From Podarcis cretensis (lineage: Eukaryota), in the NCBI GenBank assembly GCA_951804945.1, contig OX638150.1:66340001-66404000 (forward strand): DNA of 64,000 nucleotides, read 5' to 3'. A program made the translations under genes and the position numbers. Shown one piece after another: positions 7,958 through 33,355 of the stretch. Positions within the stretch are counted from its first letter, which is position 1; every line of letters starts with the position of its first letter. The notes under the pieces are model-generated. The model saw only the letters and a list, made by a program, of their open reading frames with translations. It did no database searches and was not told the origin of the DNA.

Positions 7958-9668
7958 TCAGAAGAAAAAGAAGAAGAAGAAGAAGAAGAAGAAGTCAATA
8001 CATGCATTGCTTTGGCACCTGACATCTATTCTCCAGCAAAGATTTTGGGCGTCTGATCTTGTGGCCCTTCAGTTTTGGTCCTGGAAGAAATCCTGCAACT
8101 GTGCTGTATTTAAATAGAGTTGACTTCATAAGTCACCATTTGTATATAAAACAACCCACCCACCCCTTTAATGCCATTGTTAACACCTCCTCAGTGTTCC
8201 AAAGAGATTATTTACCTGAAGTGTCTAAAATATTTGCCATATTAATGAGCTTGGTCAGCGTGTCAACATACCTATAAGCTACTTTGAATAATTCAACATT
8301 GCCTATGTCGTTTGAGAGGCTTGGGATCGTTCACATCAATAGTAAATGGGCACAATTGTTCATTTTCCAACTATCATTCTCCTGGATCTACATGGCAAGA
8401 AGTCTTGTTATTTTGCTTTCTTTTTTCATGTTCAAAGAGCTCCCAACAATTATTTTACAGTCGTCATTTTAACTGCAGGTGGATGGTGAGCATGGTACCA
8501 GCCAAGGAGCTGTGGAAATTAGGAGTTATGCTCTCTATCATGTACATAGTTAGTACCTGGTTAAGTCTGTGTACTTGAGAAGATATCCAGAACATATGTC
8601 GCCCCAATAAGAAAAAGCACGGTAAACAATGTTTTATAGTAAGAGTCTAGGAGATTATGTAGCTGATTTTATTAGGCTCTTAGCCCTGCACTGCCCACTG
8701 AAAACATTAGACTTCTTGGAGTCTTGATTCGTGTTTGCTCTAGGGAATATACATTAAACCTGTACTTTAACCTTGCTGGGGATAAGAACTGAGTTTGAGA
8801 GAGATTCCTTCTGCGGTCATCAATGACTGGTGCATAATATCCAGGAACATACTTAATTTCAGCACTACTATCACCAGCATCACGGAAAGTGCCCCAAACT
8901 CTTTTGCTCTTTTTTCTGGTAGATATGTCCTCATTTGCAATTTAATCTGCCTTCAGTAAGCAAGCAGCATCTCATAACCCAATACGCTAATTTGAATTTG
9001 CCCTGATCTGGAGTCATTTCCACAGTGAACCAGATGATCTGGGGAAATGTTGACTTGTTAGTGCAACAGCAGCCTAGAATGGAAATAAAGCCAAGCTATC
9101 CCCCCCCCCCAGTCTAAATTCAGCAGAGGGGCAACAATTTGTTGGGGCAGCAATGGAGAGAAAACGAGAGAGTGAGATGAAAACAGTGGTAGCTTTAACA
9201 GGAAGTGAGGAGAAAAGGTGGTGGTGAGACATCTTATTCCTTATTCTGATACATGATGCACTAACCTTTGGGGAAGCTACCTTTCTCAGGGGCAACTTGT
9301 GGCTGAAACACTGTGTACCAGTCACAGGAAAGAGTGTGTGAGTGAGAAAACCTCTCCATTTCCCTTTGTTGCTTTTTGCAAGTACAAGCAATGTACCACC
9401 CAAGTGGGTGGGTAAAGCAAAAAGGGGGAAATTCCTCTCTGGTTCAGATAAAGAAACCAAGCTGGGGAAGAACTCGAGAGCACCAAGCAACTAACTGGAA
9501 CCCAACCTAGAGCAGCTGGGAAAATTTCCCATCCTGCCTTACAGCTCCTCAAACGTACCCTTCAGAAAGATGCATTGCTTTTCAGTGTGTGAGTGATAGG
9601 TAAAGGGACCCCTGACCATCAGGTCCAGTCATGACTGACTCTGGGGTTGCGGCGCTCATCTCGCTTTA

Positions 9669-11336
9669 TTGGCCGAGGGAGCCGGCATACAGCTTCCGGG
9701 TCATGTGGCCAGCATGACTAAGCTTGCAGATAAAATCGCTCAGATTTGGGAAGAAGTAGACTCCACCGTGGGAGCAGGGCCAGGGTGGGAGAGTGCTAGA
9801 GTCCTGTCTAGTCAAGTTGTGTGGGATCAATTCCAATCTGTTACCTCCGAGGATGTGGACAGGCTGCTTGGACGAGTGAAGCCAACCACCTGTCTCCTGG
9901 ATCCTTGCCCATCCTGGCTTATAAAAGCTAGCCGGGAAGGACTGGGCGATGGGCTCCGTGAGGGAGCCTTCCCAGACCCGCTGAAAGAGGCGGTTATTAA
10001 ACCGCTTCTTAAAAAAACATCTTTAGATGCGGCCACGATGGCCAATTATCGCCCAGTCTCAAAACTTTCATTCTTGGGCAAGGTGATTGAGAGAGTGGTT
10101 GCTGAACAACTCCAGGCATGCCTGGAAGAAGTGGACCATTTGGATCCCTTCCAGTCGGGATTCAGGCCTCACGAAACTGCCTTGGTCGCACTGGTTGATG
10201 ATCTCCGGCGGGCTAGGGACAAAGGTGAGAGCTGTTTCCTAGTTCTGCTGGATCTCTCAGTGGCGTTTGATACCATCGACCATAACATCCTTCTGGACCG
10301 TCTTGAGGGGCTGGGAGCTGGGGGCACTGTCATACAGTGGTTCCGCTCCTTCCTCCTGGGCCGTGTTCAGAAAGTGGTGGTGGGGGATGAGTGTTCAGAT
10401 CCCTGGGCTCTCACTTGTGGGGTGCCTCAGGGTTCTGTCCTCTCCCCCATGCTTTTCAACATTTACATGCAGCCGCTGGGAGAGATCATCAGGAGGTTTG
10501 GGCTGGGTGTTCATCAGTATGTGGATGATACCCAGCTCTACCTCTCTTTTAAATCAGAACCAGTGAAGGCGGTGAAGGTCCTGTGTGAGTGTCTGGAGGC
10601 GGTTGGAGGATGGATGGCGGCTAACAGATTGAGGTCGAATCCTGACAAGACAGAAGTACTGTTTTGGGGGGACAGGAGGCGGGCAGGTGTGGAGGATTCC
10701 CTGGTCCTGAATGGGGTAACTGTGCCCCTGAAGGACTCACAGCTGTCCATGGAGGCACAGGTCAAATCTGTATCCAGGGCAGCTGTTTACCAGATCCATC
10801 TGGTACGTAGGCTGAGACCCTATCTGCCCATGGACTGTTTCACCAGAGTGGTGCATGCTCTGGTTATCTCCCGCTTGGACTACTGCAATGCGCTCTATGT
10901 GGGGCTACCTTTGAAGGTGACCCGGAAACTACAACTAATCCAGAATGCGGCAGCTAGACTGGTGACTGGGAGCGGCCGCCGAGACCATATAACACCGGTC
11001 TTGAAAGACCTACATTGGCTCCCAGTACGTTTCCGAGCACAATTCAAAGTGTTGGTGCTGACCTTTAAAGCCCTAAACGGCCTTGGTCCAGTATATCTGA
11101 AGGAGCGTCTCCTCCCCCATCATTCTGCCCGGACACTGAGGTCCAGCTCCGAGGGCCTTCTGGCGGTTCCCTCACTGCGAGAGGCCAAGTTACAGGGAAC
11201 CAGGCAGAAGGCCTTCTCGGTAGTGGTGCCCGCCCTGTGGAACGCCCTCCCATCAGATGTCAAAGCAATAAACAACTACCTGACATTCAGAAGACATCTG
11301 AAGGCAGCCCTGTTCAGGGAAGTTTTTAATATGTGA
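9669..11336 (+). pseudogene. 555-aa chimeric ORF: antisense Squam1 sequence fused to L2 reverse transcriptase, no endonuclease domain
   Basis: The first ~19 codons (TTG start) lie in the SINE. The rest is L2 ORF2 with three apparent in-frame deletions. Confidence 0.8.
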
Positions 11337-26301: not shown

Positions 26302-26572
26302 GAAGAAGGAGGAGGAGGAGGAGGAGGAGGAGGAGTTTGGATTTGATATCCCGCTTTATCACTACCCTAAGGAGTCTCAAAGCGGCTAACAATCTCCTTT
26401 CCCTTCCTCTCCCACAACAAACACTCTGTGAGGTGAGTGGGGCTGAGAGACTTCAGAGAAGTGTGACTGGCTCAAGGTCACCCAGTAGCTGCATGTGGAG
26501 GAGCGGAGACGCGAACCCGGTTCCCCAGATTATGAGTCTACCACTCTTAACCACTACACCACGCTGGCTCTC
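26302..26572 (-). mobile_element. Squam3/POM-type SINE
   Basis: Reverse complement of the 5746 and 50878 copies, with a (GGA/GAA)n tail. Confidence 0.88.
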
Positions 26573-28324
26573 AGTGCTAATCCTTTATAGCAGCAAAAAT
26601 CTATTTGGAATAAGAAAAGCAATATACCCTACACTGACTAATCAAATAAACCAGCAGTTTAGAATAAACACACACTAAAATAAAGAACCATCCTGGCTAG
26701 CCTTATCATATACCTACTCAGCCTTGAGAAACACATACCCTGGAAGGCAAAAAAAGCTGGCTTGTTCACCTGCATTGTAAGAATAAGCAATTCTAGCCTT
26801 CAGAACAAAATTATTAAAGGTACAGGAGCCCTGTCCTGTATTACATCTGGACACACTGCCTGAAAGGCTGCTGTTAAAGGCACAAGAACCTGAGCTATTA
26901 AAAAAGTTGGCAACCATAACTAGAAACAGTTTGAAATTGTTGACTTATTCATCCACCCCATACATACTGAACATACATTTAAAGTCCATGACTTCCACCA
27001 AAGAATCCTGGGAAGTTCCCTTTATTAAGCGTGCTGAGAACAGTAGCTCTGTACAGTTCCCATGGATCTTTGGTGGAAACCATGGGCTTTAAATGTGTGC
27101 TAAATGTACTGCATGTTCAGAATTCATTCAGTGGTCTCATGCTACTTTTCCTACATCTTCATCACATCATACCTTTTGATAACAGTCCGGACTATCTTAA
27201 AAAAAGAGAACCCTGTTCCTGTGCTTTTAATTAGTAGCCTAATCCAAAGAAATTTAGCAGGTGAAGTTTTTCCCGGCGTAAAGTTATGGGGAAAGCTTCG
27301 ACTACTTGATTAATGCCAAGCTGCTATAAAAGGCTAGGCTGCTAAAATGTAAGCAACCCGATATATGAGTGGCATCAAAATGTAGGTTTGTGTTCTACTT
27401 CTCCTACATTAATATTCTTGATTAGGAAAGGGGGCAGATTGTGTTGTCTGTCTCAGGCCAAACAGATCAAAGACTAAATATTCAAAAGGATTCTGCTCTC
27501 AGGCATTGAAATTTTAGGTCAGATTTTGAAAGGTGCTAAGCATCTAACTGCTGCCATTATATCATCTAGGGCTGGATTTATGGAAGAGCTCAGCATGCCT
27601 CAGATACAGAAGCTGAAGTATTTAAAGTTATGAGTGGCAAGCTATTTTAAAACCTGCCCACGAGGGATAATCAATACATGTTGCAGCATAATTTCTAAAG
27701 AGGCATGAATTCATAGCCACAAAACACGGAGTGAGGGGACTTACATGGTTAGAGTATTCGCAATACTAGCCGTTTCTCACAAAACAGGCAATAACAGGAG
27801 AGGATATTGTCCCCCCCCCCCCAATTTTGTTATGACTTCCAGAGGGGCTGCTGTGCTAGTCTGTTTCTGGGGGGAAACAATAAGCATCTCAAAGGTTGAT
27901 AGATATATTGTGGCATATGTTTCCATGGATAAGAGACTACTTTATTAGATGCATTCATCAAATCTATGCAAGTCAACCTCATCTCAAGACAAAGATGGCC
28001 AAACTGACATAACTTGGAAATGAATGAAATAATGGTGTAACATATCTGAGCCCAAACTCCTCATACTCCATGGAAGTATGCATGATCAAACCTTTATGTT
28101 CTGTGTTAATCAAGCCACAATAACGGCCAAGCCCTGATTCTATATTCAGGTTGCTAATTCTGCTACAATCGTACTGACCTAGGATTAAGTCCCATTGAAC
28201 TCAATGAGTCTGGCTTCTGAATAGACACATATAAGAACTTGCTGTTAACTCATTTTAGTTAGGAGCATGTTCATGTTAGTTTTGGACCCAATACTAATCT
28301 AGTCCAGCATCTTGTCTTCGTGGC

Positions 28325-28694
28325 TGAAATATACTCAGAGTCGCAAAGTGATTTCATGCTCTTTATTCAGCTCATAGTGGTGAGGAGGAATGAATGAAAG
28401 TCCCCTCAAGGTATCTGCTTTATATACATTATTTACACAATGGGCTGAACATGATTGGCTAATTCCGGAATTCTACTGTAAGCCAATCAGGTTGTGGATT
28501 CACTTCTATCTGGAGCATGATTGGGTAGTTCCTGCCAACCAATCATACTGCTGCATTGTTCTAGGACCAATCAGACTGCTGCATTCTGAATCCTATTGTT
28601 CTAGGACCAATCAGGCTGCTGCCTTTTGGATCCTATTGTTCTAGGGCCAATCAGACTGCTGCAGTTTGGATCCTATTCAACCCAGTACATAACA
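28325..28694 (-). repeat. 3' LTR of the Gypsy element (370 bp)
   Basis: Direct repeat of 32908-33277 (offset 4583). The two 84-aa ORF-track entries inside the LTRs are identical. Confidence 0.97.
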
Positions 28695-28706
28695 CCCCTC
28701 CCCTCT
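28695..28706 (-). promoter_or_regulatory. Polypurine tract (PPT)
   Basis: Minus strand AGAGGGGAGGGG directly abuts the 3' LTR and overlaps the pol TAG stop (28705-28707). Confidence 0.9.
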
Positions 28707-30384
28707 AAGTTCCAGTCCTGCCCGGGAGGTCGCATTCATAGTCCTCAAGGTACGCTGGCGGCCTACGTGTGCGTTGCGGCCTGGGGTGTTCCCTGGTCCG
28801 GGGTTCAGGTTCTGGCTCGTGTTCCAAGGATGCTGGCTGTGATGGGGCTGTTTGGTCTGGCGCAACCGGCTCACTCAGTCGTGGTTCTGGTTCCGGTGTC
28901 CTTTCGGCCTCGCAGGTCCTCTCTGTATTTACTGATTCTGCCTCTCCTGCTGGCCCCTCGTGCTCTATGGGCCTCACTGCCCCTCTGTTCCCTTGGGACT
29001 CCTCTGCCCTTTCCTCCTCCTGGTTTTCTCCTGGGAATCGTCGCCGTATCTGGTCGCAGTGGCGGCGCCAGCATTGCCCCCCATCCGTTAGCACCTCATA
29101 CGACACGGGGCCAGTGACCCTGGTGACTGTGGCGGGTACCCATGCTGGGCCTGCCCCAAAATTCTTTGCGTACACTGGGTCCTGAGCCTCGAAGGTCCGG
29201 GGGTTCTTGCCTTCCCCCACCACTGCCTCATCCTGAGCTCTATCGGGGTGAAGGCGGTCCAATCTGATTGCAAGGCGCCGACCCATTAGTAGTTCAGCGG
29301 GGCTCCGGCCAGTCGTTGAGCTGGGGGTGCTGTGCTGTGCTAGAAGGAATGTGGCAAGGCGGTACTCCCAATCCCCTTGTGTCATACGGCGAAGGGTGTC
29401 CTTGGTGGTCCGCACCATGCGTTCTGCTTGGCCATTGGTGGCAGGGTGGAATGGCGCCGAACGGATGTGGCGGATGGCGTTCTGCGTTGTGAAGGTTTGG
29501 AATTCTCCTGACGTAAATGCAGTCCCGTTGTCTGAGACGAGAGTGTCAGGGAGCCCGTGGGTTGCAAACAGCCTGCGTAGTACCCGGATGGCTGCGGACG
29601 TAGAAGTGGACGGTACCAGTGCGACTTCCAGCCATTTGGTGTAGGAGTCCACCACTATGAAGAATGTTTTCCCCTGAAAGGGGCCAGCGAAGTCCACATG
29701 CAGGCGTGACCATGGTGCTCGGGCGGACTCCCAGGACTGGACTGGGGCCCTTGGGGGATCTGGGCGGGATTCTTGGCAGGCCTGGCAGTGTTTGACCCAG
29801 GCCTCTATCTCTCCGTCGATCCCCGGCCACCACACATAACTCCTGGCAAGGGCCTTCATTCTTACTACCCCTGGGTGTGTCTCGTGTAGGGCTGTGAGGA
29901 CCCTTTTGCGGAGGGGCTGGGGAACAACGACCCTGCTTCCCCATAACAGGCACCCCTTGTGGGCTGACAGTTCATGTTTGCGGGTTGTGTAGCCGGCGAA
30001 TTCTGGCCCGGGGCTGCTGCTGGGCCATCCCCTCCACACCCAGTCCAGGACCCGGGAGATGACCCTATCTTTCTTGGAATGGTGTGCAACTTCTTGTGCC
30101 TGAATGGGGCGGTCAGGAAGCAGCTCCAGGCTCATAACCTCTTGTGCAGGTGCTGGGTCGGGGCCTGTTTCCGGTAGTGGTAGCCTGCTGAGGGCGTCCG
30201 CATGGCCCATCGCCTTCCCCGGACGGTGAATCAGTGCATACTGGTAGCTGGCAAGGAAAATTGACCACCTGAGGACGCGAGGAGACAGCACTTGGGGGGT
30301 CTGCTTTTCAGGGGCAAACAAGCCAAGCAACGGCTTGTGGTCAGTCACCACGGTGAAGGGCCGCCCGTACAAGAAATCATGGAA
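28705..30384 (-). CDS. Gypsy pol, 3' part: rest of RNase H and integrase (out of frame with the 5' part by one extra base)
   Basis: FHDFLYGRPFTVVTDHKPL...ADALSRLP. HHCC motif (HETH...CQAC). Catalytic core HVDFAG / SDNG / GQAER. Frame break lies at the T8 run 30385-30392. Confidence 0.93.
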   Translation of the reverse strand, partial: FHDFLYGRPFTVVTDHKPLLGLFAPEKQTPQVLSPRVLRWSIFLASYQYALIHRPGKAMGHADALSRLPLPETGPDPAPAQEVMSLELLPDRPIQAQEVAHHSKKDRVISRVLDWVWRGWPSSSPGPEFAGYTTRKHELSAHKGCLLWGSRVVVPQPLRKRVLTALHETHPGVVRMKALARSYVWWPGIDGEIEAWVKHCQACQESRPDPPRAPVQSWESARAPWSRLHVDFAGPFQGKTFFIVVDSYTKWLEVALVPSTSTSAAIRVLRRLFATHGLPDTLVSDNGTAFTSGEFQTFTTQNAIRHIRSAPFHPATNGQAERMVRTTKDTLRRMTQGDWEYRLATFLLAQHSTPSSTTGRSPAELLMGRRLAIRLDRLHPDRAQDEAVVGEGKNPRTFEAQDPVYAKNFGAGPAWVPATVTRVTGPVSYEVLTDGGQCWRRHCDQIRRRFPGENQEEERAEESQGNRGAVRPIEHEGPAGEAESVNTERTCEAERTPEPEPRLSEPVAPDQTAPSQPASLEHEPEPEPRTREHPRPQRTRRPPAYLEDYECDLPGRTGT

Positions 30385-32782
30385 TTTTTTTTACTCCCTT
30401 CACGATTGCCAGACCCTCCTTGTCGATTTGCGAGTAGTTCCGCTCGGTTGCGTTGAGTGTCTGGGAAAAGTATGCCACTGGTACCTCTCTTCCATCCGGG
30501 AGTTGGTGTCCCAGGACAGCGCCAATTCCATAGGGCGAGGCGTCGCATGCTAGCACCACCGGCAGCCTCTCGTCGAAGTGTGCCAAGACCGAGTTTGAGA
30601 CAAGCAAGTCCTTGACTGCCTGGAATGCGGCCTCCTGCCGCTGGCCCCACACCCAAGGGGCCCGCTTGTCCAGGAGTCTGTGTAGGGGCTCCGCTACCGC
30701 CGCCTTGTGGGGAAGGAAGGAATGGTAAAAGTTCAATAGTCCCAAGAAGGCCTGAAGTTCAGTCTTGTTCTTGGGCGCTGGGGCATCACAAATGGCCCGT
30801 ACCTTGTCCCCAGTCGGGTGGACCCCTTCTGCGTCCACCATAAATCCAAGAAAGTCCACCTGAGGCACTCCTAGTAGACATTTTTCCCGCTTCACCTTGA
30901 GACCCGCCGTCTGGAAACGGTGCAGAACGGTGCGGAGGCGGTCCTCAAACTCCTCTGGTGTGGGCCCGGCAATCAACACATCATCGAAGAAGGGGGTGAC
31001 GCCAGGAATCCCTTTAAGTAGAGAGTCCATTAGATTCTGGAATATGCCTGGTGCCACGCTGATACCGAATTGCAGCCGCTTTACCCTGAATGCTCCTCTG
31101 TGCGTCACAATCGTCTGTGCCTCTGCTGTGGCCTCATCTACTGGCAACTGTTGATATGCTTGGGCCAAGTCCAGCTTGCCAAAAATTTTCGACCCAGCCA
31201 GGGTGGCAAGAACATGGCTGACCACTGGCACTGGGTATGCATGGGCCGTAAGGGCCTTGTTTATGGTACATTTGTAGTCTGCACAGATGCGGACCGAACC
31301 ATTAGGCTTGACGGGTGTGACAATTGGGGTTTCCCAGGGGGCATTAGGCACCGGCTCCAGCACTCCTTGCTCCACAAGCCGGTCCAATTCCTCGTCTATA
31401 CGGGGTTTCAGGGCAAACGGGACCCGGCGGGCCTTGAGCCTGACCGGTCGTACTGCGGGGTCAAGCTGTAGAGCAATTGGGGGGCCCGTATACTGTCCCA
31501 ATTTCCCATCAAAAACCCCCGGAAATTCCTTGCATATGGCGTCCACGTCCACTTGTAAGCTAGTGTGGTTCACCCCGGTGACGGCTAGCCCCAGTGGTCC
31601 AAACCATGCCAATCCCAGTAAGCTAATGTAGGGGCCCTTGACCACCAGCAATTCCAGTTGCCGCGTCCGCCCTCGGTATTGCACCCTGAAGGTCCCCACC
31701 CCCATTGTGGGGACCTTACGTTTCTGGAAGTCCCGGAGGGTGAATGGGGCCGGCCTGAGTTTGGGACCCCCAGTAGGACACAGTTTCCTTAAGGTCCTTG
31801 CCGAGATTATGGATAGAGTTGAACCCGTGTCAAGCTCCATGCGGCATGGGGCCCCCTCTATCTGTACGTCAACATAAATTTTCTCTACGTTGGGGTGGGG
31901 CAACTGGTATACCTGGAAGTCCGTGAGCTCCGTCGAGTTGCCTTGGTGCGTTGGGCCCCGGGACCTGGGGCTCTTGGATTGGTCATCTGATGCCTGGCGT
32001 CGGGTGGGCCGAGCCCGACACACCCGGGCGATGTGTCCCGATTTTCTGCACTGCCTGCACTCTGCGTTGCGGAAACGGCAGGTCCTCCTCTCGTGACTTT
32101 CTCCGCAACTTGCGCAGTTTCCTCCTTCTCGTCGAGGCAGCTGTGGTATGTGGGCTGCTTGAGTGCGCTGCTGTACTCGGTGCACCTCCTCCCTGTTGGA
32201 TCCTGAGTCGTCGGTGAGGTCTTCATGGTGGACCCTCGGTTGGGATGGCTGGCTCGGCCGTGCCTCTTGCGTCGACCTCTCGGCAGCTTCCGTTGCCAGG
32301 GCCTCCTCCAGAGCGACCTGGAACGTTAGGTCCTTCTTAGCGTAGAGGCGTCGTTGCAGCTTCTCATCCCTCAGGCCACCGACGAGGCGGTCACGAAGCA
32401 TGTTCTCCAGCTCTGAGAAGTTGCAGAACCGGGCGGCTTGGCGGAGAGAGGTCACAAACCCAGTTATGGTTTCCCCAGGGGCTTGCCGCTTTGCATAGAA
32501 GGCATTTCGACGAGCCACCACTGAGGGCTGTGGCGAAAAGTGCCCCTTCAGCTGTTCCATTATTGTTTTGTATGGAACAGTAGCAACGTCTTCAGGCGCA
32601 AGGAGAGCCCGGGCAATTTCAAATGTCTCCTCTCCGCAAACGCTGAAGAATATTGCCCTCTTCTTGGCGTCTTCTTCATCGGTGACCCCTTTGGCTTCTA
32701 GGAGGAAGGTGAAACGGGAGGCGTACGCTTCCCAGTCTCCGGATGCTGGGTTGAACGGTGAGAAGCTGCTGTTGGTTGCCAT
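30377..32782 (-). CDS. Gypsy gag-pol, 5' part: Gag (two Zn knuckles), protease, RT, start of RNase H
   Basis: 801-aa ORF. Knuckles CASCGESHERRTC and CRQCRKSGHIARVC. Protease LDTGS. RT motifs RICADY, KLDLAQAY, LQFGI, FFDD, FLG. RNase H CDAS...YSQIDKEGLAIV. Confidence 0.95.
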   Translation of the reverse strand: MATNSSFSPFNPASGDWEAYASRFTFLLEAKGVTDEEDAKKRAIFFSVCGEETFEIARALLAPEDVATVPYKTIMEQLKGHFSPQPSVVARRNAFYAKRQAPGETITGFVTSLRQAARFCNFSELENMLRDRLVGGLRDEKLQRRLYAKKDLTFQVALEEALATEAAERSTQEARPSQPSQPRVHHEDLTDDSGSNREEVHRVQQRTQAAHIPQLPRREGGNCASCGESHERRTCRFRNAECRQCRKSGHIARVCRARPTRRQASDDQSKSPRSRGPTHQGNSTELTDFQVYQLPHPNVEKIYVDVQIEGAPCRMELDTGSTLSIISARTLRKLCPTGGPKLRPAPFTLRDFQKRKVPTMGVGTFRVQYRGRTRQLELLVVKGPYISLLGLAWFGPLGLAVTGVNHTSLQVDVDAICKEFPGVFDGKLGQYTGPPIALQLDPAVRPVRLKARRVPFALKPRIDEELDRLVEQGVLEPVPNAPWETPIVTPVKPNGSVRICADYKCTINKALTAHAYPVPVVSHVLATLAGSKIFGKLDLAQAYQQLPVDEATAEAQTIVTHRGAFRVKRLQFGISVAPGIFQNLMDSLLKGIPGVTPFFDDVLIAGPTPEEFEDRLRTVLHRFQTAGLKVKREKCLLGVPQVDFLGFMVDAEGVHPTGDKVRAICDAPAPKNKTELQAFLGLLNFYHSFLPHKAAVAEPLHRLLDKRAPWVWGQRQEAAFQAVKDLLVSNSVLAHFDERLPVVLACDASPYGIGAVLGHQLPDGREVPVAYFSQTLNATERNYSQIDKEGLAIVKGVKKIP

Positions 32783-32888
32783 TCTGAGTTCCTTGTGTCC
32801 CGGAGCTGAAGCCTGGATACACGGTGCGAGGCAGCGGTGCGGCAGGTGGCGGTGCTGCGGTGCTGTGTGTGGCAGTCAGCTCAGCGGG

Positions 32889-32906
32889 ATCCCATCCTCG
32901 TCGCCA
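32889..32906 (-). promoter_or_regulatory. Primer-binding site, tRNA-Ser(GCT)-type
   Basis: Minus strand TGGCGACGAGGATGGGAT, 1 nt after the 5' LTR. Complementary to the vertebrate tRNA-Ser(GCT) 3' end ...ATCCCATCCTCGTCG-CCA (recalled). Confidence 0.85.
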
Positions 32907-32907
32907 G

Positions 32908-33277
32908 TGAAATATACTCAGAGTCGCAAAGTGATTTCATGCTCTTTATTCAGCTCATAGTGGTGAGGAGGAATGAATGAAAGTCCCCTCAAGGTATCTG
33001 CTTTATATACATTATTTACACAATGGGCTGAACATGATTGGCTAATTCCGGAATTCTACTGTAAGCCAATCAGGTTGTGGATTCACTTCTATCTGGAGCA
33101 TGATTGGGTAGTTCCTGCCAACCAATCATACTGCTGCATTGTTCTAGGACCAATCAGACTGCTGCATTCTGAATCCTATTGTTCTAGGACCAATCAGGCT
33201 GCTGCCTTTTGGATCCTATTGTTCTAGGGCCAATCAGACTGCTGCAGTTTGGATCCTATTCAACCCAGTACATAACA
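32908..33277 (-). repeat. 5' LTR of the Gypsy element (370 bp)
   Basis: Minus strand reads TGTTATG...ATTTCA. Identical by eye to 28325-28694. TATATAAA at 33002-33009(-), AATAAA at 32945-32950(-), multiple CCAAT boxes. Confidence 0.97.
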
Positions 33278-33355
33278 GTGGCCAACTGGATGCCTACAGG
33301 AAACATACAAGCAGGATCTGAGTGCAAGAGCACTTTGCTCATTTACAATTCCCAC

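Follow-up and report, generated by a model that had tools for sequence, protein, structure and literature searches.

Anatomy and classification of the element

The window analysed here, a stretch of 64,000 nucleotides from Podarcis cretensis (contig OX638150.1 of assembly GCA_951804945.1, positions 66,340,001 to 66,404,000), contains a Ty3/Gypsy retrotransposon with long terminal repeats (LTRs) on its minus strand, at 28325-33277 of the window (4,953 bp). A sequence-only reading had described two identical 370-bp LTRs, a perfect GTGGC target-site duplication (TSD), an 18-nt primer-binding site (PBS) for tRNA-Ser, a polypurine tract (PPT), all catalytic motifs and a gag-pol frame split by one frameshift, and each of these features was recovered. 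The 5' LTR (32908-33277) and the 3' LTR (28325-28694), both on the minus strand, agreed at 370/370 nt with 0 differences, and the exact repeat stopped at the LTR ends, which are TG...CA when read in the element sense. The two copies of the TSD, to which no strand was assigned, lie at 28320-28324 (left) and 33278-33282 (right). A one-base spacer (32907) separates the 5' LTR from the PBS (32889-32906, minus strand), which is complementary to one tRNA-Ser(GCT) isodecoder group; exactly 18 nt match the 3' end of the genome's tRNA-Ser(GCT) genes plus CCA. At the other end, the 12-nt PPT (28695-28706, minus strand) adjoins the 3' LTR with its final GG.

The first of two minus-strand frames (30377-32782, 801 codons from an ATG at 32782) encodes Gag, the protease, the reverse transcriptase (RT) and most of RNase H. 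The second (28705-30390, 561 aa from stop to stop) encodes the end of RNase H, the integrase zinc finger, the D,D(35)E core, a GxV module and a P/E-rich tail. The catalytic motifs of protease, RT, RNase H and integrase were all found. A strict HHCC pattern missed the zinc finger owing to a distance of two residues between its first and second histidines, but Pfam detected the domain. Two Gag knuckles had also been reported, and both are present (aa 223-255; 32018-32116, minus strand), but only the second has the canonical form CX2CX4HX4C, the first being CX2CX3HX4C. Neither a chromodomain nor env was found in the element by inspection of frames, Pfam or motif check; the pol stop codon overlaps the PPT and thus leaves no space for env. 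The frames are broken inside RNase H, at a homopolymer run (30385-30392, no strand assigned), and the Pfam RT_RNaseH match is split accordingly, positions 3-64 falling to the first frame and positions 62-105 to the second. Through this frameshift the window copy is likely non-autonomous. Weighing against that label, which is therefore uncertain, a frameshift in a homopolymer could be a consensus-calling error. Among the 110 other full-length copies sampled, one broke at the same codon, so the run is prone either to slippage or to errors of assembly.

The 5' LTR contains 40-bp tandem units, seven CCAAT/ATTGG boxes, a TATA motif at about 33003-33009 and only 2 CpG; in the 3' LTR, AATAAA lies at about 28362-28367. 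The element had been called CpG-rich in a CpG-depleted host, which held for the interior (observed/expected ratio 0.63, 229 CpG) but not for the LTR (0.12, 2 CpG), which falls below both flanks (0.23 and 0.24). Exactly two CpG were present in 107/119 family LTRs, and a promoter in an LTR so poor in CpG may escape methylation silencing. The 40-bp CCAAT unit (28555-28677 of the window, and in sibling LTRs) varies in number, with LTRs of about 290, 330 and 370 bp, and its number is sometimes unequal between the two LTRs of one copy.

The structural features of Ty3/Gypsy elements (TG...CA LTRs, PBS, PPT and TSD) are all present, and the pol order obtained with Pfam is protease, RT, RNase H, integrase. 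Among solved structures the RT was closest to Ty3 (E 4.6e-56, versus 1.6e-30 for foamy virus and about 1e-19 for murine leukaemia virus), and Gag matched only generic Gag clusters of a protein atlas. The earlier placement in the Mag group agreed with the two Gag knuckles, the GxV module, the 5-bp TSD, the tRNA-Ser primer and the lack of env and chromodomain. Two CCHC arrays in Gag are given as a Mag criterion in a passage of PMC2577118, supplement rows of PMC2774666 list the absence of env and chromodomain and a GxV/I module past the integrase core, and a 5-bp TSD and a tRNA-Ser or Leu primer appear in a section of PMC3286476 as typical, not exclusive. The alligator protein P0246, matched by eye to a family labelled Mag/Jule, was 56% identical over 338 aa and fell in the same clade with a support of 99, in a tree that has this proxy in place of named reference elements (Mag, SURL, Gulliver, CFG1, DRM). 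Dependence on a proxy and a by-eye match, instead of a tree with GyDB references, weighs against the placement. A chromovirus was ruled out by the missing chromodomain after integrase and by two knuckles versus the usual one CCHC, Gmr1 by the Pfam order, in which integrase does not precede RT, and Retroviridae or an errantivirus by the lack of env.

Full-length Mag elements of reptiles are already known, three such lineages being reported in a section of PMC3670739, and the family described here is most probably a young Mag/Jule family of lacertids. The 'Alligator mag' AKHW01014103, as displayed in part of PMC3670739, also has a single gag-pol, the same knuckle pair (first CX2CX3HX4C) and GPV past the integrase core, and 50/69 residues of its RT block were identical to the lizard element by a by-eye count. 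However, a supplement section of that paper places Mag/Jule under the heading 'in tuatara, turtles and crocodiles', whereas the lizard family is squamate; the alligator element groups with Xenopus and not with the squamate clade, and the lizard family is young and multicopy. The Culex Mag lineage (PMC3286476) and the Mag clusters A/B/C (PMC2774666, PMC2577118) are, in the sections of those papers that describe them, also about 5 kb long with short LTRs, a mostly 5-bp TSD, a tRNA-Ser/Leu primer, two CCHC arrays, integrase past RNase H, a GxV/I module and no chromodomain or env; the lizard family differs by its amniote host and by a longer LTR of 40-bp CCAAT units. Lacertid gene models named 'K02A2.6-like' (Podarcis, Zootoca, Lacerta) belong to the same family or to near sisters (94-96% over RT/RNase H) and are annotated as uncharacterised proteins only; their Zootoca-led cluster counts 133 members, among them full-length ones of 1,356 aa. 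No description of the family was found in the literature searched, with subscription journals, Repbase and Dfam outside the search.

Outside the element, 140 open stretches of at least 78 codons were examined for host genes and gave only one RT of a long interspersed nuclear element (LINE); short exons would escape this search. It is a 565-codon stretch of the non-LTR type on the plus strand (9639-11336, Pfam E 1.2e-34). A short repeat at 26370-26570, of very high copy number by contig depth, is likely a short interspersed nuclear element, and contigs link other copies of it to the LTR end of the family.

Size, age and activity of the family

The search covered a genome of 1.51 Gb in 51 contigs. 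RT search gave 459 candidates, of which the 40 best were scored (1251-1265 bits, versus 1265 for the query itself) and were all near-identical. Exact LTR starts numbered 378, and exact LTR-PBS junctions of two types numbered 258 and 74, so that at least 332 copies keep the junction; contig depths were not taken as copy numbers. From the first 100 LTR-start matches, 81 fell into 39 pairs and one triple, and internal sequence was absent in 16/18 single LTRs that were fetched, which are likely solo LTRs.

When 142 loci were parsed uniformly, 119 succeeded, and removal of one copy with duplicate flanks left 118 that were counted. Their LTR pairs were identical in 89/118 cases (42 substitutions over 42,704 sites) and separated by a single change in 20. 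One open frame (at least 1,380 codons, about 1,390) was present in 80 of the 111 full-length copies, and 103/115 non-tandem copies had a perfect 5-bp TSD. The pairwise ratio of nonsynonymous to synonymous differences per site (pN/pS) was 0.16 (57 copies) and 0.18 (21 copies) in two length classes; such low values are expected where copies arise through working proteins, and the family is under purifying selection. In copy number and divergence, with most sampled LTR pairs identical and most frames open, the very recent family proposed from the sequence alone was supported, as was its lizard host, the nearest named proteins being lacertid (99% over 367 columns in Podarcis, 96% in Zootoca).

Four loci at G000:C2:118.38-118.49 Mb (L078, L079, L080 and L108) have a common right flank, and three of them a common left flank too; they are one insertion copied by local segmental duplication, with unequal decay. 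Tandem LTR-internal-LTR-internal-LTR arrays occur at L093 and L048/L049 and likely also at G000:C5:94.44 Mb, while L031 and L088 (G000:C3:16.95-16.96 Mb) inserted independently at sites about 2 kb from each other, and a solo LTR follows after another 19 kb.

Ages were estimated at a substitution rate of 1-3e-9 per site per year. At these assumed rates, a 370-bp LTR pair without differences by itself sets only an upper limit of about 1.4-4 million years (My). The 23-copy clade that includes the window copy, with 4 LTR substitutions in 8,509 sites, would be 0.08-0.24 My old. Over about 4.2 kb, 5-8 substitutions separated the window copy from the five siblings closest to it, several subclades were equally young, and two pairs of copies at different sites were internally identical.

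The family had also been considered likely polymorphic. In run X1, a 1,431-nt contig tracks the left flank (2 substitutions and one small deletion), stops matching at 28324 and continues with 180 letters unlike the element; in run X7, a 392-nt contig likewise stops matching at 28324, followed by about 180 unlike letters. An occupied site would lead the contig into the LTR, and the site is thus likely empty in X1 and X7. Runs X3 and X5 had no coverage of the unique flank.

From these data we conclude with high confidence that the window copy is a young, likely non-autonomous member of an env-less Mag/Jule-type Ty3/Gypsy family, which likely expanded in the germ line of this lacertid during the past few hundred thousand years and may even now be moving. 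Several points weigh against this conclusion: loci were chosen through exact patterns or top RT scores, a bias towards young copies; 23/142 loci failed to parse; all ages depend on the assumed rate; and the approximately 180 extra letters in X1 and X7 were not tied to the right flank. The family may show activity today. It is possible, though distinctly less probable, that it is recently extinct or silenced, after a burst about 0.1-0.5 My ago and with no transposition today. The results include no new insertion or transcript, and the distance of the window copy from its nearest siblings and the estimated age of its clade would suit such a burst. Nevertheless, the share of identical LTR pairs and of open frames, the other subclades just as young, the internally identical pairs at different sites and a site that looks empty within a near-identical flank all speak against extinction. 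Assembly collapse or gene conversion, instead of youth, is a very unlikely source of the LTR identity and high copy similarity: polishing can homogenise short near-identical repeats and the homopolymer break hints at consensus errors, but flanks and TSD are specific to each element, private variants are common to both LTRs of a pair (366, 369 and 330-bp forms), the single-change pairs exist and the interiors are also young and under purifying selection.

Records of priming and integration in the copies

Three distinct 3' ends occur among the tRNA-Ser(GCT) genes called in the genome (in 3, 2 and 3 genes), and the PBS types of the family match these three isodecoder groups in 84, 23 and 2 of the 111 sampled copies, with 2 others. 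On the copy tree, PBS type required 22 changes, versus 23.3 when shuffled, while an inherited control label required 6 versus 26. Moreover, copies L040 and L053, at different sites, have identical interiors and different PBS types. Such random switching is predicted if the primer rewrites the PBS, as in HIV-1, where a passage of PMC11251516 describes reversion of the PBS to the primer used. The rewriting is likewise primer-derived in retroviruses; here the record comes from an endogenous Ty3/Gypsy family and its copies in the germ line, with three isodecoders used.

A longer tRNA record was found in two copies. L112 (G000:C17:15389000-15396200), 1,484 bp long and with a TSD, contains a 35-nt tRNA match, whose last two letters could belong to either side of the junction, followed directly by integrase sequence. 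In L132, an older relative (80% LTR identity), 24 exact and about 35 approximate tRNA nucleotides are followed by LTR-end-like sequence. The stop of this read-through adjoins the variable-loop C equivalent to the position that carries m3C47d in human tRNA-Ser(GCT), as stated in a section of PMC7969016, and by analogy the lizard tRNA may bear the same modification. Sections on retroviral priming in the set PMC2857682, PMC11251516 and PMC7969016 describe plus-strand synthesis that continues when m1A58 is missing; in contrast to the retroviral stop at m1A58, the read-through here ends beside the predicted m3C47d position. A 5'-broken tRNA-Ser(GCT) copy, missed by ARAGORN, lies at L124.

The TSDs carried a second record. 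On the left (U3) side, TSDs ending in GG were found in 9/12 imperfect versus 6/103 perfect duplications (Fisher p = 1.3e-7), and on the right (U5) side 2 of the 12 imperfect ones started with CT; one copy has both. GG, the last two letters of the PPT, and CT are the element letters that adjoin the LTRs on their inner side. It is likely, judging from these letters, that the linear DNA has two extra base pairs per end and that its 5' flap is in some cases ligated rather than removed. The GG pattern was spotted before it was tested, and a later set of 44 parsed copies had only 3 imperfect TSDs (1 GG, 1 CT, 1 neither), both of which count against this explanation. A change in the TSD of one XMRV provirus is ascribed to an unpaired 5' dinucleotide in a passage of PMC2857682; that is one proposed case, whereas here scars are present at about 10/115 germ-line insertions of a Ty3/Gypsy family. 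The 103 perfect TSDs also revealed a weak symmetric target preference (G/C first in 68/103, C last in 52/103, T second, A fourth).

A life cycle can be proposed in which the CCAAT/TATA promoter of the CpG-poor LTR would yield one RNA for a single Gag-protease-RT-RNase H-integrase polyprotein, and minus-strand synthesis would be primed by any of the three tRNA-Ser(GCT) isodecoders. As plus-strand synthesis would copy 18 primer nucleotides, each new PBS would take its sequence from whichever tRNA had served as primer. The linear DNA would likely bear two extra base pairs per end, GG at U3 and CT at U5, which integrase would trim before joining the ends with a 5-bp stagger, and host repair would retain the 2-nt flap in about 1/12 insertions.

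Relatives in squamates and ticks

Relatives were drawn from the best 120 of about 850-1,090 matches per search. Among these best matches, the nearest named relatives were lacertid (94-96%), gecko (about 80%), proteins from Rhipicephalus and from an Ixodes cluster (72%), snakes (64-68%) and Xenopus (63%). When the search was made from the tick side, other hard ticks (Ixodes, Dermacentor) came first at 78-82%, then squamates at no more than 76% and then a soft tick at 66%. Quick trees were built on best-scoring matches, the RT/RNase H set without 3/121 short-cover proteins and the integrase tree with the 49/124 rows that were long enough. A clade of squamates and hard ticks was obtained in the RT/RNase H trees (98-99 in the Shimodaira-Hasegawa-like approximate likelihood ratio test, SH-aLRT) and in the integrase tree (99). 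Arachnid monophyly was rejected (p 1.3e-4 in RT/RNase H, 3.6e-5 in integrase), as were, in the RT/RNase H trees, vertebrate monophyly (p 0.015) and a grouping of squamates with the alligator (p 0.043). Squamate monophyly (p 0.64 in the approximately unbiased test) and all ticks as one clade (p 0.195) were not rejected. A nesting of ticks inside squamates, which free trees gave with SH-aLRT values of 83-91, was not established, since a tree constrained to squamate monophyly fitted equally well or even better (p 0.64). In one snake gene model, FKBP15 (P0190), domains of this lineage are present (RT, RNase H and integrase), which may be an annotation artefact or an exonisation.

An old transfer between squamates and hard ticks is in our judgement the probable origin of this grouping, and since the squamate and all-tick groupings both went unrejected, either direction would be possible and old paralogy stays a rival. 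According to that rival, which we rate as clearly the less probable, very old paralogous Mag lineages descended vertically under strong constraint, with losses elsewhere and no transfer. Mag is probably the oldest metazoan Ty3/Gypsy lineage according to a passage of PMC2774666, identity stands at 56-66% for the elements of Xenopus, alligator, spider and nematode, and the unrejected groupings and the restriction of the searches to best matches would also suit paralogy. Nevertheless, in RT/RNase H the hard ticks share 72-76% identity with geckos and lacertids but 66% with the soft tick, the joint clade recurs in both protein regions, the monophyly of arachnids and of vertebrates and the squamate-alligator grouping were rejected, and no fish, turtle, bird or insect protein fell inside the clade among the named matches placed in the trees. 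No report of a Gypsy transfer between ticks and squamates was found in the literature searched, with subscription journals outside the search. Building on the transfer, we propose, tentatively, that at an early point in the history shared by squamates and hard ticks an env-less Mag/Jule lineage passed from one group to the other, that it then diversified in geckos, lacertids and snakes, and that it still transposes in wall lizards, where its copies would record tRNA isodecoder choice, modification stops and integration repair in the germ line.

Host-parasite transfers are known for BovB, and if the tick link is true an LTR element joins it. Active Ty3/Gypsy elements are absent from birds and mammals, according to a section of PMC3670739, so that a young multicopy lizard family would be among the few places in amniotes to study this class. 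Its insertions, which are likely polymorphic, would serve as population markers and are candidate mutagens. The records in the copies also yield testable predictions: germ-line use of tRNA-Ser(GCT) isodecoders near 258:74:few, linear DNA extended by 2 bp at its ends, and errors of repair at a rate close to 9%. The window copy alone is ordinary; what the analysis adds is the record of priming and repair kept by the family as a whole, together with the likely exchange between ticks and squamates.

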